This document shows positions 1 through 7,330 of a DNA stretch of 11,452 nucleotides, piece after piece. Below the pieces are notes generated by a model. The model saw only the letters and a list, made by a program, of their open reading frames with translations. It did not search any database and was not told the origin of the DNA. Source of the stretch: a virus (Duplodnaviria > Heunggongvirae > Uroviricota > Caudoviricetes); the IMG/VR virus record IMGVR_UViG_2660238548_000003, positions 1 through 11,452 of that record; one strand, given 5' to 3'. Made by a program: the position numbers and the translations under genes. Position 1 is the first letter of the stretch; each line of letters begins with the position of its first letter.

Positions 1-110
1 TTATCAGTGTCTTTTTTCGTTACCGATTCCAATTCAAGTTCGTTCAGACGATGACGAAGTGTGTGTGCTGCAATCTCCTGGATTGAAGGAGGTAAATCTT
101 TAAATTCCAT
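1..110 (-). CDS. Small protein, 5' end present and 3' end running off the window (YdfB-like by position in a dicB-type operon)
   Basis: Minus-strand ATG at 110-108 preceded by GAGG 6 nt upstream and directly after the ydfA-like stop; reads MEFKDLPPSIQEIAAHTLRHRLNELELESVTKKDTD to the window edge. Not in the ORF track because it is truncated. Assignment rests on synteny only. Confidence 0.45.
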   Translation of the reverse strand, partial: MEFKDLPPSIQEIAAHTLRHRLNELELESVTKKDTD

Positions 111-121
111 CGTCAACCTCA

Positions 122-274
122 TCAGTCAGTGTTTCTGGCTAACCAGCGACGCGCGCCAGCTTCAGTTTTAAACGTTTTGCTTCTGGTATACGTCATCGCG
201 GTAAACGTGCCGTCCAGGTTGGGGAATACTCCGTATACCAGAGATTCGTTGTTGCCAAGATCGATAGTATCCAT
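122..274 (-). CDS. ydfA: YdfA-like small protein (50 aa), first gene downstream of dicA in the dicB-type operon
   Basis: Track ORF 122..418 trimmed to the internal ATG at 274-272, which has a GAGG Shine-Dalgarno 5 nt upstream; the longer start would overlap the operator repeats. Product MDTIDLGNNESLVYGVFPNLDGTFTAMTYTRSKTFKTEAGARRWLARNTD. Size and position immediately downstream of dicA match ydfA. Confidence 0.6.
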   Translation of the reverse strand: MDTIDLGNNESLVYGVFPNLDGTFTAMTYTRSKTFKTEAGARRWLARNTD

Positions 275-351
275 GTTGACCTCATTTCCCCTTAACGCCG
301 GGTAGCGGAACTGTTTGCTGAGAACACCGTGCGGTGTCTTGATGCAAGCAA

Positions 352-404
352 GATTAGTCATGGCTAACAAATTGGTCAAGCATTTTTGTTTGCCATGACT
401 AACA
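352..404. promoter_or_regulatory. Two operator-like sites (352-369 and inverted 387-404), consensus TGTTAG-TCATGG-CTAACA; likely DicA operator at the promoter of the leftward ydfA operon
   Basis: 17-bp exact repeat TTAGTCATGGCTAACAA at 354-370 and 900-916; an inverted 16/17 copy at 386-402. Sits between the dicA terminator-like palindrome and the ydfA start. A -35-like TTGACC lies on the minus strand at 374-379. Confidence 0.55.
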
Positions 405-420
405 TTTTGGGCAACCAAAA

Positions 421-445
421 AGATAACGCATTGATTGCGTTATCT
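421..445 (-). terminator. Palindrome AGATAACGCA-ttgat-TGCGTTATCT overlapping the dicA stop; candidate intrinsic terminator insulating dicA from the downstream operon
   Basis: Perfect 10-bp inverted arms with a 5-nt loop; on the minus strand it is followed by a U5 run, and on the plus strand by TTTTGTTTGTT, so it could act in either direction. Stem is only moderately GC-rich. Confidence 0.45.
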
Positions 446-847
446 TTTGTTTGTTCGTTGACGGGCTTTTAATAACTCTTCAAAGAGTTTGTTGAAATTT
501 TTTACTCGGGCGCGCATCTCGGTGAGCTGAGCATCCTGTTCTGATTCAGGCAATGCATTAAAAAGCTCAAGGAGCTCATGTTCTTTGGGGGATAGAGCAA
601 CTGGCTCCTCAATAGGTGGTGATGGCTGCTTGTCTTCATCGCCAAATAGAATCCATGTTGGCGAGCACTGCAGTACTTTGCTGAGGGCAAAAAGATTCTT
701 TCCTGTAGGTTCGCTATCATCCCGCTCCCATTGTGAAACCGATACGTGAGAAATTTTCAGGGCTTTAGCAAGAGACCTTTGGGTGTATTTGAGGTTTTTT
801 CGGCGATATCTAATGCGTTCGCCAATGGTTAAATTTTTTGTATCCAT
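440..847 (-). CDS. dicA: DicA-like repressor (135 aa, XRE-family HTH, no S24 peptidase domain)
   Basis: Track ORF 440..847. N-terminal HTH segment TQRSLAKALKISHVSVSQWERDDSEPTGKNLFALSKVL; 135 aa; divergent from a 76-aa Cro-like gene, with ydfA-like and ydfB-like ORFs downstream. Sequence matches my recollection of E. coli DicA closely. Confidence 0.85.
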   Translation of the reverse strand: MDTKNLTIGERIRYRRKNLKYTQRSLAKALKISHVSVSQWERDDSEPTGKNLFALSKVLQCSPTWILFGDEDKQPSPPIEEPVALSPKEHELLELFNALPESEQDAQLTEMRARVKNFNKLFEELLKARQRTNKR

Positions 848-869
848 AGTTAGCTAATGCTAAATCTTA

Positions 870-915
870 TTGACTATGTTTTTGTTAACATCTATTTTGT
901 TAGTCATGGCTAACA
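870..915 (+). promoter_or_regulatory. Candidate dicC promoter (-35 TTGACT 870-875, -10 TATTTT 893-898) overlapping a perfect palindromic operator TGTTAG-tcatgg-CTAACA (898-915)
   Basis: 17-bp spacing between the hexamers; the operator is the third copy of the repeat seen at 354-370 and shares the 6-bp inverted arms. Lies in the dicA-dicC divergent intergenic region. Confidence 0.5.
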
Positions 916-930
916 ATTAAGGTGCTTTAA

Positions 931-1161
931 ATGCTTAAAACTGACGCACTTTTGTATTTCGGTTCAAAAACAAAACTTGCACAAGCTGCTGGTATTCGTT
1001 TGGCTTCGCTTTATAGCTGGAAAGGGGAGCTAGTACCTGAAGGTCGCGCGATGCGCCTGCAAGAGGCATCCGGCGGGGAACTTCAGTACGACCCCAAAGT
1101 TTATGACGAATATCGTAAGGCAAAGCGGGCGGGGCGGTTGAACAATGAAAATCACCCCTGA
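931..1161 (+). CDS. dicC: DicC-like Cro-type regulator (76 aa)
   Basis: Track ORF 931..1161. AAGGTG Shine-Dalgarno 6 nt upstream of the ATG; 76 aa; divergent from dicA; matches my recollection of DicC (MLKTDALLYFGSKTKLAQAAGIRLASLYSWKG...). Confidence 0.8.
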   Translation: MLKTDALLYFGSKTKLAQAAGIRLASLYSWKGELVPEGRAMRLQEASGGELQYDPKVYDEYRKAKRAGRLNNENHP

Positions 1162-1666
1162 ACAGGTTTGTGAGGCTCTGGATGCCTGGGTATGTCGACC
1201 AGGAATGACACAGGAGCAGGCGACGATATTAATCACGGAAGCATTCTGGGCTCTGAAAGAACGCCCGAACATCGATGTTCAACGCGTCACGTTTAATGAT
1301 GGCGAGGTTGATCAACGGGCGCTGGGCGTTAACCGGGTGAAGATATTCGAACGCTGGAAAGCTATCGACACCAGGGATAAGCGGGAAAAATTCACGGCGC
1401 TGATTCCGGCAATTATGGAGGCTATCCGGATCAGCGATTTCAGATTGTATTGTGAAATTACTGACGGAAAAAGCATTACGTACATGATCGCCGGGTTAAA
1501 CAAAGAATATGGCGATGTGGTGGAGTCCGGGCTGCTTTTTGCGGATCCAGCTGTTGTGGAACGTGAAACTGACGAGCTTATAGAAAAAGCTATTGCTTTC
1601 AAGCATGCGTATCGTCAGCAATATCAACAAAAAGCCGGATGGAATTATGAGTCTTCTTTTTGCTGA
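1145..1666 (+). CDS. YdaT-like (CII-like) early regulator, 173 aa
   Basis: Track ORF 1145..1666; overlaps the dicC stop by 17 nt. Position immediately after the Cro-like gene, and N-terminus MKITPEQVCEALDAW plus a KIFERW...LIPAIMEAI segment, resemble Rac YdaT as I recall it. Family assignment unverified. Confidence 0.55.
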   Translation: MKITPEQVCEALDAWVCRPGMTQEQATILITEAFWALKERPNIDVQRVTFNDGEVDQRALGVNRVKIFERWKAIDTRDKREKFTALIPAIMEAIRISDFRLYCEITDGKSITYMIAGLNKEYGDVVESGLLFADPAVVERETDELIEKAIAFKHAYRQQYQQKAGWNYESSFC

Positions 1667-2612
1667 ACGCCCACTGGTTATTAACACTCAGCTGGCGATG
1701 AAAATAGGTCTGAACGAAGCCATTGTGTTACAGCAGCTGCATTACTGGTTGAGAGATACCGGTTCCGGCATGGAATGTGATGGTGTTCGCTGGATTTATA
1801 ACACAACAGAACAATGGCTGGAACAGTTCCCGTTCTGGTCAGAGTCAACGTTAAAACGCGCATTTGCAAGTCTGAAAACGCTGGGGCTTTTGCGTTGCGA
1901 AAAGCTCAACAAATCAAAGCGTGATATGACTAATTTTTACACGATTAATTACGAGAGCGAGCTTTTAGATGGTGGCAAAGTGAGCGAATCCATCAGGTCA
2001 AAATGCGCCGCTCCATCAGGTCAAAATGACACGATGGAAGAGGCCAAAATGGCACGCTCCATTGGTTCAAAACGACCCAATGTCATCGGGTCAAAATGGC
2101 CTGATGATCTTACAGAGAATACAACAGAGATTACTACAGAGAATAAAAACACTTCTCGTCCGGAAGCTTCGCAACCGGACATGCAGACGGCTGAACAGGA
2201 TTTTTTAAACCGACACCCTGACGCGGTTGTGTTCAGTGCGAAAAAACGCCAGTGGGGCAGCCAGGAGGATTTAGCGTGTGCGCAGTGGATCTGGGGACGA
2301 ATCGTGAGTCTTTACGAGCAGGCTGCCAGCGATGATGGCGAAATCATGCGACCGAAAGAACCAAACTGGACTGCATGGGCCAATGATGTGCGCACAATGC
2401 GGATGCTGGATGGCAGAACTCACAGACAAATTTGCGAAATGTTTGGTCGGGTACAGCGGGATCCATTCTGGGTAAAAAACGTCATGAGCCCGTCAAAGCT
2501 TCGCGAAAAATGGGATGAGCTGGTTATTCGTCTGGGGCGTTCGCCTGTACAGCGTTGTGTAAAACATATTTCTGAACCGGACACCGAAATTCCGCCGGGA
2601 TTCAGGGGGTAA
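1647..2612 (+). CDS. Replication initiator, lambda O-like / YdaU-like, containing the ori iterons
   Basis: Track ORF 1593..2612 begins at a TTG; I prefer ATG 1647 (MSLLFAERPLVINTQLAMKIGLNEAIVLQQLHYWL), with ATG 1605 as an alternative. Internal direct repeats at 1987-2099 are typical of an origin inside an O-type gene; immediately followed by a DnaC-like gene. Confidence 0.7.
   Translation: MSLLFAERPLVINTQLAMKIGLNEAIVLQQLHYWLRDTGSGMECDGVRWIYNTTEQWLEQFPFWSESTLKRAFASLKTLGLLRCEKLNKSKRDMTNFYTINYESELLDGGKVSESIRSKCAAPSGQNDTMEEAKMARSIGSKRPNVIGSKWPDDLTENTTEITTENKNTSRPEASQPDMQTAEQDFLNRHPDAVVFSAKKRQWGSQEDLACAQWIWGRIVSLYEQAASDDGEIMRPKEPNWTAWANDVRTMRMLDGRTHRQICEMFGRVQRDPFWVKNVMSPSKLREKWDELVIRLGRSPVQRCVKHISEPDTEIPPGFRG
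1987..2150. repeat. Origin-like iteron array: five ~19-bp direct repeats at ~23-bp spacing with core TCAAAATG, then an AT-rich tract with three tandem ACAGAGA(A/T)TA 12-mers
   Basis: Repeat units start at 1987, 2010, 2033 (degenerate), 2056 and 2081; for example AATCCATCAGGTCAAAATG and GCTCCATCAGGTCAAAATG. AT-rich repeats lie at 2111-2145. All are inside the O-like CDS, as in lambda ori. Confidence 0.7.
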
Positions 2613-2618
2613 CGAAGC

Positions 2619-3359
2619 ATGAAAAATATTGCGACAGGCGGTGTTCTTGAACGCATCCGTAAGCTGGCTCCGCAGCATGTAACCGCGCCATACCGAACAG
2701 TGGACGAGTGGCGCGAGTGGCAACTTGCAGAAGGCCAGAAGCGTTGTGAGGAGATCAACCGCCAGAATCGTCAGTTGCGGGTGGAAAAAATTCTGAATCG
2801 CTCCGGCATCCAGCCGTTGCACCGCAAGTGCTCGTTTGCGAATTACCAGGTGCAGAATGACGGCCAGCGATACGCGTTGAGCCAGGCGAAATCCATCGCC
2901 GATGAACTGATGACCGGATGCACAAATTTCGCATTCAGCGGAAAACCTGGTACCGGGAAAAACCACTTAGCGGCGGCTATCGGGAATCGCCTGCTGAAAG
3001 ATGGCCAGACAGTGATTGTGGTTACCGTGGCTGATGTTATGAGTGCTCTACACGCCAGCTATGACGACGGGCAATCAGGCGAAAAATTTTTGCGGGAACT
3101 GTGCGAAGTGGATCTGCTGGTTCTTGATGAAATTGGCATTCAGCGCGAGACGAAAAACGAGCAGGTGGTACTGCACCAGATTGTTGACCGCCGGACGGCA
3201 TCACTGCGCAGTGTCGGGATGCTGACAAACCTGAATCATGCCGCAATGAGCACGCTTCTTGGTGAGAGGATTATGGACCGGATGACCATGAACGGTGGTC
3301 GTTGGGTGAATTTTAACTGGGAGAGCTGGCGGTCAAACGTTGGACGTCAGGGTATGTGA
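2619..3359 (+). CDS. DnaC-like helicase loader (AAA+ ATPase), YdaV-like, 246 aa
   Basis: Track ORF 2619..3359. Walker A FSGKPGTGKNHLAAAIG and Walker B LLVLDEIG; length and motifs match DnaC/IstB-type loaders; directly downstream of the O-like gene. Confidence 0.85.
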   Translation: MKNIATGGVLERIRKLAPQHVTAPYRTVDEWREWQLAEGQKRCEEINRQNRQLRVEKILNRSGIQPLHRKCSFANYQVQNDGQRYALSQAKSIADELMTGCTNFAFSGKPGTGKNHLAAAIGNRLLKDGQTVIVVTVADVMSALHASYDDGQSGEKFLRELCEVDLLVLDEIGIQRETKNEQVVLHQIVDRRTASLRSVGMLTNLNHAAMSTLLGERIMDRMTMNGGRWVNFNWESWRSNVGRQGM

Positions 3360-3384
3360 GAATTTTTAACGAGGTGAATTTTCG

Positions 3385-4155
3385 ATGGAAACCGTATTAC
3401 ATGCACTGAAAGCGATGGGAAAAGCCAATTCTGTTGAACTGGCGGCACGAATTGATATCAGCCGTGAAGAAGTTCTCAACGAACTGTGGGAGCTCAAAAA
3501 AAATGGCGTTGTTGATAAAACGGGTCACACCTGGTTTCTGGCTGTCGAAGGTGAATCCCGGGTAACCGAAGAGCGGCCAGTAAAATCTGAAACACAGGAT
3601 ATGCTGACCGAAGAGGTCGCTCCAAAAGTTAGCGCTAACATGATGATTGAGTTTATCGGTCAGGATGGGGCTAAAACCTGTGAAGAAATAGCGGGTAAGT
3701 TCGGTGTCAGTACTCGCAAGGTTGCTTCCACGCTGGCGGTGGTAACCGCAACGGGGCGGCTGGCACGCGTTAATCAGAACGGTAAATTTCGTTACTGCAT
3801 GCCGGGCGATAATTTACCAGCAGAGCCGAAAGCCGCGCTGGTAACGGAAAGTGATGGTAAGGCCTTTTCTCAGCCAGCAGGTGCTGCGTTACCAGTCCGG
3901 GAAGCCGCAACACAGGAAGAAATTAAAACAGAAACTGTGGCGGACATTGTGCAGCCGTTGCCATCGTTTACCGAAACGCAAGCAGATGAGCTGATTTTTC
4001 CGTCCCTTCGCAGGGCAAACCTGGCGCTGCGCAGGGCGAAAAGTGATGTTCAGAAGTGGGAGCGAGTCTGCGCCGCGCTGCGGGAGCTGAACAAGCACCG
4101 GGATATTGTTCGACAGATTACTGATTCTTCCCGCCGTGTTGTATCGGAAAAGTGA
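3385..4155 (+). CDS. Hypothetical protein, 256 aa
   Basis: Track ORF 3385..4155. GAGGTG Shine-Dalgarno 8 nt upstream of the ATG; long clean ORF in the operon direction. No family recognised with confidence. Confidence 0.6.
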   Translation: METVLHALKAMGKANSVELAARIDISREEVLNELWELKKNGVVDKTGHTWFLAVEGESRVTEERPVKSETQDMLTEEVAPKVSANMMIEFIGQDGAKTCEEIAGKFGVSTRKVASTLAVVTATGRLARVNQNGKFRYCMPGDNLPAEPKAALVTESDGKAFSQPAGAALPVREAATQEEIKTETVADIVQPLPSFTETQADELIFPSLRRANLALRRAKSDVQKWERVCAALRELNKHRDIVRQITDSSRRVVSEK

Positions 4156-4170
4156 TTGCCGGAGGCGCTT

Positions 4171-4563
4171 ATGGCAAAAGTATTTACACCAGAAGAGCGG
4201 GAAGAAGTGAAGGCGCGCATTGTGGAATTCGTGCGCCTGAGCGGACGAGAAACTTTTCGACAACTGGCAGATAAAACGGGTGTCAGTAAGACCGCTATTC
4301 GTCGTTTATCTGGTGCGCTTGCGGCCAGTGGTGATGTCTGGCTCTCTGGTTGCGGGGTATTTCCATCAGAGCAGGCGTATCGCGTATGGCGTAAGACACC
4401 GGAGAAGGCTGCTGACCCGACACTGATTCGAAAGTTACCTGACGGAGAAATACGTCGTTACAACAGACGGCAGAACATAATTTGTCGTGAGTGCCGCCAG
4501 AGCGAAGTTATGCAGCGTGTGCTGGCGTTCTATCGGGGAAACTTTCAGGAGGTGATGGAGTGA
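4171..4563 (+). CDS. Hypothetical protein, ~130 aa, with an HTH-like segment and a C-terminal CxxC
   Basis: Track ORF 4156..4563 starts at a TTG; ATG 4171 has GGAGG 5 nt upstream. Contains FRQLADKTGVSKTAIRRL and ICRECRQ. Confidence 0.55.
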   Translation: MAKVFTPEEREEVKARIVEFVRLSGRETFRQLADKTGVSKTAIRRLSGALAASGDVWLSGCGVFPSEQAYRVWRKTPEKAADPTLIRKLPDGEIRRYNRRQNIICRECRQSEVMQRVLAFYRGNFQEVME

Positions 4564-4856
4564 GGGTGAGAGTTTATATTGCCGGTCCAATGACGGGATA
4601 TGAAAATTTCAACCGTGAGGCGTTTCACAAGGCGGAAGAGGAACTGAAACGGGAAGGGCATACCGTCTTAAACCCGGCAGTACTTCCGGACGGGCTGACA
4701 CAGCCGCACTACATGGATATTTGCATGGCAATGATTCGTTGCGTGGATGCGATTTACATGCTGAATGGCTGGCAGCGGTCAGCGGGCGCTAAGGCAGAGC
4801 TGGCACTGGCGGAGAAACTGGGACATGCGGTGATTTATCAGGAGGTGGCTCAATGA
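4560..4856 (+). CDS. DUF4406-like protein (nucleoside 2-deoxyribosyltransferase-like fold family), ~98 aa
   Basis: Track ORF 4491..4856 trimmed to GTG 4560, which overlaps the upstream stop (GTGA) and has AGGAGG 8 nt upstream. Motifs VYIAGPMTGY, VLNP and NGWQRSAGAKAELALA match my recollection of DUF4406 proteins. Unverified. Confidence 0.6.
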   Translation: MRVRVYIAGPMTGYENFNREAFHKAEEELKREGHTVLNPAVLPDGLTQPHYMDICMAMIRCVDAIYMLNGWQRSAGAKAELALAEKLGHAVIYQEVAQ

Positions 4857-5467
4857 GAGAGGTTAACTATGAGGCGCTTCGTGAAGCAGCAGAGAAAGCA
4901 ACTAAAGGATGCTACATCGTAGGGCATACATCGGGCAATCAGCATGGGAATATAACAGGAGTTTTTGTTTGTCAAAAATGGAAAGGAGAACCCGGTGGCG
5001 TGATTGCGGAATGTCATGTTAACTGCCTGATTGAATCAGATGCTCAGGCTTATGCAAACGCTGAATTCATAGCAGAGGCTAACCCGGCTACCGTGCTGGA
5101 ATTACTGGATGAACTGGAAGCCCAAAGCAAACGCATTGCAGAGCTGGAGACTAATCTTGCTGCGCTTGCGGCGGAGAATGCGGGGCTGAATAAATTTATC
5201 GTACAGAGTTGCTACGTGTTTGATGGCGAGCAGGATGAACTATCTGATGCGTATATCTGTGCAATAGACGGAAGGATGCCGCAAATCCCAGCCACCGACG
5301 CTTTCCTGGCGGATGTGCGGGCTGGGGCGTTTAACGACCTTTGCGCGGCGTTTGTCAGGCACGCAAAAATTGCAGGACTGGACGATGGCGATCTCGTTAC
5401 GGTGAAAGAAGCGACTGATGCGCTGCTGCACTGTGCAGAACAGCTTCGGGAGGGATTCAAGCAATGA
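4853..5467 (+). CDS. ead/Ea22-like family protein, 204 aa
   Basis: Track ORF 4853..5467. ATGA start/stop overlap with the upstream gene and GGAGG 6 nt upstream. Contains NPATVLELLDELEAQSKRIAELETNLAALAAENAGL, a coiled-coil signature I associate with Ea22-like prophage proteins. Confidence 0.5.
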   Translation: MREVNYEALREAAEKATKGCYIVGHTSGNQHGNITGVFVCQKWKGEPGGVIAECHVNCLIESDAQAYANAEFIAEANPATVLELLDELEAQSKRIAELETNLAALAAENAGLNKFIVQSCYVFDGEQDELSDAYICAIDGRMPQIPATDAFLADVRAGAFNDLCAAFVRHAKIAGLDDGDLVTVKEATDALLHCAEQLREGFKQ

Positions 5468-5748
5468 GTGAATCAAAATGTCAGATTAATGGCAATCAGA
5501 TAGAGCCGTGCGCGGCGTTGTCAAAATCTCTCGAATATGGAAATCCAACGTTCAAGAGTAAAGGGATATTTATCCCGGAGCGTGTGAACATAAACACTGG
5601 CGAGTCAGGCTTGGATATTGCTCAAATTCACTCTGGGAAATATATCGGTCGTGGCGTTGCAATGTGCTTTTGCCCGTTCTGTGGTGAAAGTTTGAAAACG
5701 TGGGAGGAAACGAGTGAGCAATACAAAAAATCATGGCATGAAATTTAA
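5464..5748 (+). CDS. Hypothetical small protein, 94 aa, with a C-terminal CPFCGE motif
   Basis: Track ORF 5464..5748. ATGA overlap with the upstream stop (translational coupling). Function unknown. Confidence 0.5.
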   Translation: MSESKCQINGNQIEPCAALSKSLEYGNPTFKSKGIFIPERVNINTGESGLDIAQIHSGKYIGRGVAMCFCPFCGESLKTWEETSEQYKKSWHEI

Positions 5749-6319
5749 AGGAACACCAGGTCCATGGCATGTAAGTTTCCACGGTTCAGCTAATTGCTGG
5801 GTAGTGGATAGTGAACGCGATAAGGCAATTGCTAAGGTGACAGAATACAACAATGACTGGCAGATGCAGAAAGCTAATTTTCAGCTTTTAGCGGCAGCAC
5901 CAGAATTACTTGAAGCCCTGCAAGCGGTGGTTCGTGTTGCTGACAGAAAAACCGATGAATTCGAAATGGCCCATTCTGCAATTAACAAAGCATTAGGAGT
6001 GATACTGATGAACGTAATTAAAGAAATACCAGTAATGCGTGATGAATATGGCTGCTGGACGCATCCTGAATATGAAAAATTCTGTGATGGTCGGGAATAT
6101 ATTTCAACGGAAGAGTTTAACGCCTGGATGGAGGAAAATAATCTTCAATACGTCCTCTGCTTCAGAGATGAAGGATGTGCTGACCTTGATGCGTGTGATG
6201 CTGATATTTCTGCATGGGAACCGGAACGACCAGAGGGCGATGGCTGGTTTATTGGTTCCATTCATGATACGGAAGATGGCCCGGTTTGTGTCTGGTTGCG
6301 AAATAAGGCTGAAGCATAA
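5714..6319 (+). CDS. Hypothetical protein, 201 aa, with an Ea22-like N-terminal motif (GTPGPWHV...LLAAAPELLEAL)
   Basis: Track ORF 5714..6319. GTG start with GGAGG 6 nt upstream; overlaps the previous gene by 35 nt. An in-frame ATG at 5738 is an alternative start without a Shine-Dalgarno. Confidence 0.55.
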   Translation: MSNTKNHGMKFKGTPGPWHVSFHGSANCWVVDSERDKAIAKVTEYNNDWQMQKANFQLLAAAPELLEALQAVVRVADRKTDEFEMAHSAINKALGVILMNVIKEIPVMRDEYGCWTHPEYEKFCDGREYISTEEFNAWMEENNLQYVLCFRDEGCADLDACDADISAWEPERPEGDGWFIGSIHDTEDGPVCVWLRNKAEA

Positions 6320-6423
6320 AGGCGATAAACCAACTAACAACTAAATACTGAAGATTTAAATCAGAAACGATTTTTATTAAATCCTTAACCGGAGGGATTC
6401 CTGCACCCTCAGAACATCAGGAG

Positions 6424-6441
6424 GCCGCCCGAAAGGGCGGT
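6424..6441 (+). other. GC-rich hairpin with a GAAA (GNRA) tetraloop in the 6320-6516 intergenic region
   Basis: GCCGCCC-GAAA-GGGCGGT. No U-run follows on either strand, so it is not a canonical intrinsic terminator; possibly an mRNA-stabilising or processing element. Confidence 0.4.
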
Positions 6442-6516
6442 AATAAAAATGGCAGAACTAACTAAAGAATGGTTGCAACAAACAATTACTGATATTCAGA
6501 GCAATTGAGGTGAGAA

Positions 6517-6687
6517 ATGCGGATGGAAAATTGTTTATTGCCGTATCTGGTGCGGTTTGGGGCGTCGTCATTAACAGTTATTCCACATGTCATGATGGCT
6601 GACAATATTATCCCGGCACCAAAGCGCCATACCGGTATTGCAGCGGCGCGACGTGCAGCAAAGAGACGCAGGAGAGCAAAACGATGA
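6517..6687 (+). CDS. Small basic ORF (56 aa, or ~31 aa from the internal MMADN start), not in the ORF track
   Basis: ATG 6517 with GAGGTG 4 nt upstream; ends ...RRAAKRRRRAKR with a TGA overlapping the next ATG (ATGA at 6684). Coding status uncertain. Confidence 0.35.
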   Translation: MRMENCLLPYLVRFGASSLTVIPHVMMADNIIPAPKRHTGIAAARRAAKRRRRAKR

Positions 6688-6875
6688 AAAACCGTAAAGC
6701 AAAGATGCTTATTTCCCGTGTATACAGACGTTGCTATCCCAGCCAGTGGTTGAGAGTTAGCAATCGCCGTGTGGTGTTGTACTTATATTCTGGAATTGCC
6801 AGAGAGGGAATCAAAGATAAGCGCAGCGCGGCGCAAAACCGCTGGAAAAACCACTTGCGCACTAAAGGAGCTTGA
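6684..6875 (+). CDS. Hypothetical small basic protein, 63 aa
   Basis: Track ORF 6684..6875. GGAG ~9 nt upstream; tightly packed with flanking ORFs. Confidence 0.45.
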   Translation: MKNRKAKMLISRVYRRCYPSQWLRVSNRRVVLYLYSGIAREGIKDKRSAAQNRWKNHLRTKGA

Positions 6876-6876
6876 T

Positions 6877-7086
6877 ATGGCTATTGCCGCAAGTTACACC
6901 ATGCATCTCTACTGTGATTGTCGCCAGTGTACAAATGGTAAATATCAGTCACCAGACTTCGGTGAGTATATAGGTACGTCATGGGCTGGCTGTGCAAAAG
7001 AGGCGCGCAAGGATGGCTGGCGAATAAGCAAAGACAAAACGCGTGCTTTTTCACCCGGGCATAAAGTTTTGAGGATTAACAAATGA
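6877..7086 (+). CDS. Hypothetical Cys-rich small protein, 69 aa
   Basis: Track ORF 6769..7086 trimmed to ATG 6877 (AAAGGAG 6 nt upstream), which starts 1 nt after the previous stop. Product MAIAASYTMHLYCDCRQCTNGKYQ... Confidence 0.5.
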   Translation: MAIAASYTMHLYCDCRQCTNGKYQSPDFGEYIGTSWAGCAKEARKDGWRISKDKTRAFSPGHKVLRINK

Positions 7087-7322
7087 CAACATTTACCGAC
7101 GACGACAAGAAACTAATTAAAGAAATCAAAGAGCGTATCAGCAGCCTGGAGGTTCGAGACGATATTGAGCGCCGGGCTTATGAAATAGCGTTAGCCTCGC
7201 TGGAAGCAGAGCCGGTGGCATGGCTGCATTCAGACAATGGCTTAGGTATTCCGGCAATAACGAGGAGTAAAAACATTGCTGACAGTTATCAAAGAGCTGG
7301 TATGTTCAGCCGCTATATATAG
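7083..7322 (+). CDS. Hypothetical protein, 79 aa; possibly the N-terminal part of a gene split by a frameshift
   Basis: Track ORF 7083..7322. ATGA overlap with the upstream stop and GAGGA 8 nt upstream. The downstream ORF is open in another frame across 7283-7322. Confidence 0.5.
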   Translation: MTTFTDDDKKLIKEIKERISSLEVRDDIERRAYEIALASLEAEPVAWLHSDNGLGIPAITRSKNIADSYQRAGMFSRYI

Positions 7323-7330
7323 CCAAGCCA

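Follow-up and report, generated by a model that had tools for sequence, protein, structure and literature searches.

A predicted replication origin inside the initiator gene of a Qin-family lambdoid prophage, and a short repeat tract shared across bacterial phyla

A cluster of direct repeats in the viral record IMGVR_UViG_2660238548_000003 raises the question of whether a Qin-type prophage can still carry a usable replication origin. The stretch analyzed, referred to here as the window, covers positions 1-11,452 of that record (11,452 nt), and all coordinates are those of the window. A first-pass annotation had reported five direct repeats of about 23 bp (iterons) followed by three 12-nt A/T-rich repeats within an O-like initiator gene, had likened them to the origin of phage lambda, and had proposed that the replication module is complete, unlike that of the Qin prophage of Escherichia coli K-12. 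Our analysis of the sequence points to 1987-2185 as the site at which a Qin-family lambdoid prophage has its cis-acting origin of replication, within the linker-coding middle of its own initiator gene, and we put the probability of this reading at roughly 80%. The evidence supports an origin of the known lambda-type kind; what was not expected is how universal one of its DNA motifs proved to be.

Organization of the repeat array

The elements of the predicted origin and of the gene that contains it are as follows.

1647..2612, plus strand: initiator gene (321 aa), with a winged-helix-like N-terminal domain, a disordered linker holding the predicted origin, a lambda-O-type C-terminal domain and a DnaT-like tail
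1647..1970, plus strand: region coding for aa 1-108, the N-terminal DNA-binding domain that presumably reads the iterons
1991..2013, plus strand: iteron 1, core GGTCAAAATG at 1996-2005
2014..2036, plus strand: iteron 2, core GGTCAAAATGAC
2037..2059, plus strand: iteron 3, core GGCCAAAATGGC, 1 mismatch
2060..2082, plus strand: iteron 4, CATTGGTTCAAAACGACCCAATG, outer arms altered with dyad symmetry retained (read from the sequence)
2084..2106, plus strand: iteron 5, CATCGGGTCAAAATGGCCTGATG, 7-nt outer arms complementary at 6/7 positions (read from the sequence)
2085..2528, plus strand: region coding for the lambda-O-type C-terminal domain (aa 147-294; counterpart of lambda O residues 135-270 in the alignment), which presumably contacts the helicase-loading partner
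2111..2148, plus strand: three 12-nt repeats, TACAGAGAATAC / AACAGAGATTAC / TACAGAGAATAA, presumed DNA-unwinding element and an instance of CAGAGAnTAC
2158..2180, no strand assigned: inverted repeat GTCCGG-N11-CCGGAC, a putative functional element on the right-hand side of the tract
2553..2609, plus strand: region coding for the C-terminal tail ...ISEPDTEIPPGFRG, near-identical to the extreme C-termini of DnaT and Rac YdaU

A repeat search located five 23-nt direct repeats spanning 1991-2106, with spacings of 23, 23, 23 and 24 nt and with copies 70-100% identical to the reference copy. Tandem Repeats Finder independently reported a period of 23 at 1976-2029 and a period of 12 at 2112-2145 (2.8 copies, 86% matches), so that both sets of repeats lie where the first-pass annotation had placed them. 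The 8-mer TCAAAATG is found exactly at 1998, 2021 and 2091, and with one mismatch at 2044 (CCAAAATG) and 2067 (TCAAAACG). This 8-mer is not enriched over the window as a whole (19 found versus 17 expected), and its clustering alone is significant, five same-strand matches falling within 110 nt, whereas none of 500 first-order Markov simulations yielded more than 3. Autocorrelation at a lag of 23 reached 0.53 against a window mean of 0.255 (standard deviation 0.052), and the tract of 12-nt repeats gave 0.67 at a lag of 12 against 0.27 (standard deviation 0.09). A sixth, degenerate iteron with the core GGCAAAGTG may be present at approximately 1968-1990. The consensus core of the iteron family, GGTCA-AAA-TGACC, is a palindrome, and iterons 2, 4 and 5 of the window are dyad-symmetric.

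The first 12-nt repeat lies one iteron period past the last iteron. A+T make up 70% of the segment 2107-2156, whose coding strand is rich in purines, and the tract has the lowest duplex stability of any 40-bp stretch in the gene (dG of -45.6 versus -56.5 +/- 3.4 kcal/mol), placing it among the least stable 0.9% of the window. The tract is a likely unwinding element because it is A+T-rich and least stable, because protein alignment places it opposite the AT-rich segment of the lambda origin, and because an inverted repeat follows it. At the position of the inverted repeat, relatives carry either a longer GTCnGGTTGCG..CGCAACCnGAC or a lambda-like TCGTCGCAGAATTCTGGCGA. Iterons, tract and inverted repeat are all contained within the open reading frame (ORF) at 1647-2612, in its linker-coding middle, and a loader gene follows; this is the lambda-type organization, internal to the initiator gene, that had been proposed. 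No Rfam family was matched within the window.

The initiator and conservation of its iterons as DNA

The initiator matches PHROG 391 ('replication initiation O-like') at 2e-96. Scans against Pfam (E<=0.01) and NCBIfam matched no model, and every named match among the 120 best of 4,290 homologues is a 'hypothetical protein' in RefSeq naming; the analysis thus turns such a gene into an annotated initiator with a mapped predicted origin. The earlier description of the gene as O-like stands for its C-terminal half, where residues 147-294 are 35% identical to residues 135-270 of lambda O (148 aligned positions, E 3e-27); this domain is also 50% identical over 58 aa to P41 of Bacillus phage BceA1. 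The description does not extend to the N-terminal domain, for which a lambda O type was considered and rejected (no match to Pfam Phage_rep_O; profile score of 1.3 bits; hhalign probability of 0.3%). The protein therefore appears, on sequence comparison, to be a chimera that is lambda-O-like in its C-terminal half only. The N-terminal domain gave weak winged-helix matches among PDB sequences, and the best Foldseek matches were the RepA_N initiators 4pql and 4pt7 (probability 0.99-1.0, E 0.03-0.05, TM-to-target 0.5, from a model with a pLDDT of 56), which we treat as a lead only. AlphaFold predicts residues 104-175, which are encoded by the origin, to be disordered. Used alone as a query, the N-terminal domain retrieved 10,150 cluster representatives at E<=1e-3; a family of some 10,000 representatives is yet without a Pfam or NCBIfam model. 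Some proteins of the family (400-880 aa) hold two copies of the domain; the labels attached to family members are 'hypothetical protein', 'Primosomal protein I', 'GntR family transcriptional regulator' and 'transcriptional regulator'.

At the other end of the protein, the last 14 residues, SEPDTEIPPGFRG, nearly match the extreme C-termini of DnaT (PDB 2ru8, 6aep and 9zbt_D) and of YdaU (locus L124, 2480-2524; window counterpart 2553-2612), and in all three cases the gene for the tailed protein is directly followed by a DnaC-type loader gene. Judging from these sequences, the tail may act as a transferable recruitment peptide for DnaC or DnaB-DnaC. The mode in which DnaT recruits DnaB/DnaC was described as unknown in a 2026 paper (PMC13377028).

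Polymorphism at third codon positions was compared among 54 distinct close relatives from viral contigs. Polymorphic third-codon columns numbered 52/108 in the N-terminal domain and 81/123 in the C-terminal domain (133/231 jointly), as opposed to 9/40 in the iterons and 2/15 in the tract (11/55 jointly). Relative to the flanking domains, the origin thus shows about 3-fold less third-codon variation (Fisher p = 4e-7). The core GGTCAAAATG at 22-24-nt spacing is kept in phages of Izhakiella, Trabulsiella, Edwardsiella, Proteus, Xenorhabdus, Providencia, Aeromonadaceae and Staphylococcus. The N-terminal domains of GGTCAAAATG-bearing relatives are 50-75% identical, those of the Staphylococcus phages being at about 50%; the 'DnaD domain protein' of Staphylococcus phage fPfSau02, which bears the same iterons, is 47% identical to the N-terminus of the window's initiator. 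By blastn the iterons alone are detected in the Staphylococcus phages (87% over 61 nt). Initiators with divergent N-terminal domains bear quite different iterons at the same position. By these comparisons iteron sequence is inherited with the N-terminal domain, which it tracks across phyla, as would be expected of a protein and its binding site.

An explanation that has to be considered is that the repeats are by-products of coding, representing a low-complexity linker peptide with no function as DNA. The starts of the five iterons fall in codon phases 2, 1, 0, 2 and 2, and since all three phases are represented the iterons cannot mirror a repeated peptide; the suppression of synonymous variation in the origin argues in the same direction. 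The 12-nt tract, for its part, is in frame and encodes TENT-TEIT-TENK, and the T-E-N/I-T frame is used in 117 of 123 pattern-matched sequences (L002, L003, 120 genome loci and the window), as a peptide-level explanation would have it. Against this, Thermoanaerobacter (L076) uses a different reading frame across the tract, and non-coding DNA contains it in Planococcus (L029), Bacillus (L035), an alphaproteobacterial metagenome-assembled genome (MAG; L109) and the rolling-circle plasmid pBSG3; in an unbiased sample its units are spaced by 11 nt about 40% of the time, with CAGAGA in all three phases within single ORFs; and GAG is retained in genomes of 33-40% GC. We regard a purely coding origin of the repeats as the least probable of the alternatives weighed in this study. 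The repeats are neither due to chance nor coding-driven, and the tract is conserved as DNA, not purely as peptide. A coding-driven coincidence, the outcome that the first-pass annotation had named as damaging to its own proposal, is thus not borne out, DNA-level conservation in relatives exceeding what coding needs.

The CAGAGAnTAC tract across phyla

The tract has the form (ACAGAGAWTACW)n. To assess its distribution, the exact 23-mer ACAGAGAWTACWACAGAGAWTAC was scanned against one genome per species (596 Gb, both strands; about 0.14 chance matches expected by our own arithmetic), and at least 120 matches were found across bacterial phyla. The hosts among the matches listed belong to Gamma- and Alphaproteobacteria, Campylobacterota, Bacilli, Clostridia, Negativicutes, Cyanobacteria, Chloroflexota, Fibrobacterota, Nitrospinota, Planctomycetota, Acidobacteriota, Bacteroidota and Patescibacteria. 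Four of the matches are unrelated protein repeats without iterons (L015, L034, L093 and L106); apart from these, the tract was not found outside initiator loci among the genome matches listed, and because of this confinement there is no sign that host chromosomes make use of it. In blastn comparisons the tract alone is 88-97% identical to O/DnaD genes of Stx, Klebsiella and Bacillus/Staphylococcus phages, genes that share either nothing else or a single domain with the window. A total of 104 phage records hold the tract, and the annotated genes listed for them are replication-type, transcriptional regulator or hypothetical protein. The first-pass annotation had described these repeats as A/T-rich, which is correct as to composition; they are not merely so, since a specific motif is conserved across phyla.

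The association of the tract with iterons is general and directional. A periodicity of 21-24 nt was found in the 110 nt upstream of the tract in 98/118 loci (above the 99th percentile of control segments) and downstream of it in 1/117 loci. When iteron cores resembling GGTCAAAATG were sought with up to 2 mismatches, the first CAGAGA was located 21-24 nt past the last core in 67/88 distinct loci. One N-terminal domain superfamily is common to 90/91 tract-bearing ORFs, although across phyla this domain keeps only remote sequence similarity. The C-terminal domains of these initiators are of at least six types (Phg_2220_C, DUF6017, DnaB_2, DnaT, DnaA_N and lambda-O type), and the next gene may encode a DnaB helicase, a DnaC-like ATPase, lambda P or another protein. 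Thus one short motif is conserved at the nucleotide level in more than 10 phyla, while the adjoining iterons, the C-terminal domains and the downstream genes vary.

We also examined an unbiased sample of 70 distinct viral loci (GC 33-48%) that were picked by the N-terminal domain only. Clustered CAGAGA units followed the iterons in 61 of the 70 loci, with a unit spacing of 12 nt (60 times), 11 nt (38) or 13 nt (4). Because the spacing varies over 11-13 nt, CAGAGA falls in all three codon phases (125, 28 and 10 occurrences). The consensus of the unit is (A/C)CAGAGA(n)TAC.

The tract might alternatively be kept mainly as a recombination linker for the exchange of N- and C-terminal modules, with any AT-rich sequence being sufficient for melting. 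Mosaicism is indeed seen exactly at the tract: the O genes of Stx phages share just 40 nt with the window (97.5% identity), phage BceA1 shares the tract and the C-terminal domain, a Staphylococcus phage shares the N-terminal domain and the iterons, and the single N-terminal superfamily occurs in combination with six or more C-terminal types and with varied downstream partners. Exchange leaves unexplained the identity of the tract in phages whose hosts never encounter one another (cyanobacteria, Chloroflexota, Patescibacteria, Bacillota and Pseudomonadota), its fixed distance of 21-24 nt from the last iteron, and its presence in orphan origins in non-coding DNA. A role mainly as a linker is for these reasons improbable. 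A conserved tract would itself explain why module shuffling is seen exactly there, and shuffling is more likely a consequence than the cause of tract conservation.

Conservation of the tract across phyla calls for a specific reader. The initiator itself is the leading candidate, because the tract co-occurs solely with the N-terminal domain superfamily, has no single loader or helicase as its constant companion, and shows no sign of use by host chromosomes; such a role would be analogous to that of Rep and DnaA proteins on single-stranded unwinding elements. Reading by a universal host factor, or a purely physical role, could conceivably account for the tract instead. Comparison by eye with the DnaA box (TTATNCACA), DnaA-trios, the integration host factor (IHF) consensus and -10 hexamers revealed no convincing match. 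We tentatively propose, as a possibility that we hold somewhat below even odds, that CAGAGAnTAC (11-12 nt) is a so far undescribed element that opens origins almost universally within a single, very large superfamily of initiators (phage, prophage and plasmid), that it is read sequence-specifically by the winged-helix domain or by a universal host factor, and that the iterons are free to diverge and set replicon specificity. We found no paper that prints the tract or the peptide TTEITTE/TTENTTE, in a search that did not extend to the older papers on lambdoid origins, so that an earlier description is possible. If the proposal is true, sequence alone could suffice to locate the origins of thousands of temperate phages. 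CAGAGAnTAC would then serve as a melting module that is portable and independent of the host, and it would hint at the way in which winged-helix initiators open DNA.

Three further loci with the tract have unusual settings. In pBSG3 (L288, NC_014104), an 8.4-kb Bacillus rolling-circle plasmid, three iterons CCTACAGGGAAAG and three ACAGAGATTACT units lie in non-coding DNA at 745-843, approximately 550 nt upstream of a 'protein rep' gene that is of the rolling-circle type by our own reading of its sequence; four near-identical plasmids share the arrangement. No winged-helix initiator was found near this array in the 2.8 kb viewed, and the array may represent an orphan origin relying on a helper phage. 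In a Lachnospiraceae MAG (L077, at about 5580-5840 in the orientation of the motif), CRISPR-like repeats GATTTTAGTACCTAAACAAATTACGTGACTGTAAAAC abut a truncated origin made up of iterons and tract, an arrangement that could be an assembly chimera or an array beside a prophage remnant. In a Gracilibacteria MAG (L009, 1389-1849), the initiator ORF is broken by in-frame TGA codons within the iterons. The Gracilibacteria lineage recodes TGA as Gly, and the in-frame codons fit this recoded genetic code.

Module integrity, proposed mechanism and comparison with known systems

The genes and signals that surround the initiator are as follows.

440-847, minus strand: dicA-like repressor gene (Pfam and comparison with K-12 Qin)
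870..898, plus strand: pR-like sigma-70 promoter TTGACT-17-TATTTT, predicted by consensus scan only, between the dicA-like and cro/dicC-like genes
931-1161: cro/dicC-like gene (Pfam and comparison with K-12 Qin)
1145-1666: cII/YdaT-like gene, upstream of the initiator
2619..3359, plus strand: DnaC-type helicase-loader gene, 246 aa, intact (NF009043, Pfam IstB_IS21, PHROG 50)

The predicted pR-like promoter would carry transcription through the origin. The loader matches NCBIfam NF009043 over profile positions 1-245 of 248 with 506 bits (cut-off 389), a full-length match consistent with the intact DnaC-like loader described earlier. It is a YdaV-type paralogue because its score against true DnaC, 307, falls under the cut-off of 357, and its gene is about 90% identical at the nucleotide level to ydaV of the K-12 Rac prophage. 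Downstream of the loader are a DUF1627 gene, nin-region-like genes, DUF968 and RusA. The repressor, cro-like and DUF968 genes match in length dicA, dicC and ydfU of K-12 Qin (135, 76 and 349 aa), and the nearest complete E. coli relative (strain 401651, 97.5% identical) has dicB, relBE and hokD nearby. By this gene content we assign the window to the early-right region of a Qin-family prophage. In the part of the strain 401651 prophage that corresponds to window 9043-10004 lies hokD; the window itself has no ORF of more than 92 aa in this stretch of about 960 nt, which is situated between a P63C-domain gene and the DUF968 (ydfU-like) gene, and no Rfam family was found there. The annotation of MG1655 Qin runs from dicA-dicC-ydfX-ydfW to ydfU and contains neither an initiator nor a loader gene, which agrees with the statement in the first-pass annotation that K-12 Qin lacks replication genes.

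Several points weigh against the assignment of 1987-2185 as an origin, or against its being active. Internal symmetry is poor in iterons 1 and 3, the right-hand inverted repeat has perfect arms of 6 bp only, and the fold of the N-terminal domain is assigned from an AlphaFold model of low confidence (pLDDT 56). Qin-type prophages are often cryptic, and the module decays in some hosts: K-12 Qin has lost it entirely, the loader is frameshifted in E. coli 401651 (L125 6973-7718), and the initiator is a pseudogene in Shigella flexneri (L104). The points on decay favor an alternative in which the locus is an origin by descent but is now an inactive fossil within a defective prophage, its sequence kept by recent ancestry. 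We consider such a fossil unlikely, though it is the most serious of the alternatives. The initiator and loader ORFs are both full length in the window, and all five iterons and three tract units are present. The greater conservation of the origin than of synonymous sites of the domains among the 54 relatives points to continuing selection on the DNA, and 78 of 81 gene copies (80 related loci and the window) keep the full length of 966 nt. The genome records of the lambdoid phages mEp460 and PhiR42_1 hold the same initiator gene (91% identical). In phage mEp460_ev081 (L289 3507-3908) a small 'LygF' gene, and no loader, comes after the initiator; the loader may be dispensable, because the mEp460 initiator has no loader gene behind it. 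The preferred reading is thus of an origin that is still functional, a status that we infer from intactness and conservation of the sequence, and the Qin-type prophage of the window, unlike K-12 Qin, may still be capable of replication.

The following mechanism is proposed, in which iteron binding, opening of the tract, recruitment of the loader and present-day activity are all inferred. Transcription from the pR-like promoter would yield the initiator and traverse the origin. Dimers of the initiator would bind through their N-terminal winged-helix domains to five or six dyad-symmetric 23-bp iterons (core GGTCA-AAA-TGrCC), and the iteron-bound initiator would build an O-some-like complex. This complex would open the adjacent least-stable tract of three 12-bp CAGAGAWTAC repeats, one strand of which would probably then be held sequence-specifically, as Rep and DnaA proteins do at unwinding elements. 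The lambda-O-type C-terminal domain together with the DnaT-like tail would recruit the host DnaB by way of the downstream DnaC-type loader. The iterons could, on the other hand, be mainly regulatory, serving autoregulation, titration or handcuffing of the initiator, or as a roadblock to pR transcription; the array lies within a transcribed gene, and plasmid iterons have such dual roles (PMC10797057). A constant low-stability tract at a fixed distance, together with positional homology with the lambda origin, favors an origin and makes a mainly regulatory array very unlikely. Regulation by the iterons would be an added role, not an alternative to initiation.

Among known systems, the closest in gene order is ydaU-ydaV of the Rac prophage of E. 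coli K-12, which has the same succession of repressor, cro-like, YdaT/cII-like, initiator, DnaC-type loader and DUF1627 genes, and whose YdaU shares the C-terminal IPPGFRG tail of the window's initiator. YdaU was considered as a relative of this initiator and rejected, being an unrelated protein without GGTCAAAATG iterons and without a CAGAGAnTAC tract. In fold comparison the N-terminal domain comes closest to the RepA_N plasmid initiators (RepA of pSK41 and pTZ2162; 4pql and 4pt7), although Pfam RepA_N gave no sequence-level match and the fold model is of low confidence. The iteron-bearing origins of RepA_N plasmids lie inside the rep gene.

The origin of lambda, like those of Stx phages 933W and P27, has the same order of iterons, A/T-rich purine-skewed tract and inverted repeat (PMC7466680), and is likewise found in the linker-coding middle of the initiator gene, downstream of pR-cro-cII. 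The inverted repeat of the window is the positional counterpart of the one to the right of lambda's AT-rich region. The two systems differ in their iterons (in lambda, four annotated 18-bp iterons of the TCCCTCAAAACGAGGGA type, 20-24 nt from start to start; in the window, five of 23 bp with GGTCAAAATG), in the tract (degenerate in lambda, three precise 12-nt repeats in the window), in the helicase-loading partner (lambda P versus a DnaC-type ATPase), and in the N-terminal domain of the initiator, the lambda O type not being shared. The 13-mers of oriC and RK2 oriV are likewise short tandem repeats in the least stable DNA beside initiator-binding sites, and these unwinding-element repeats are bound strand-specifically by DnaA, TrfA and RepE and are said to vary in sequence between replicons (PMC10797057). 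Their binding offers, by analogy, a plausible model for how the tract may be read. Whereas the oriC and RK2 repeats vary by replicon, the motif of the window is kept across phyla while the iterons beside it change completely.

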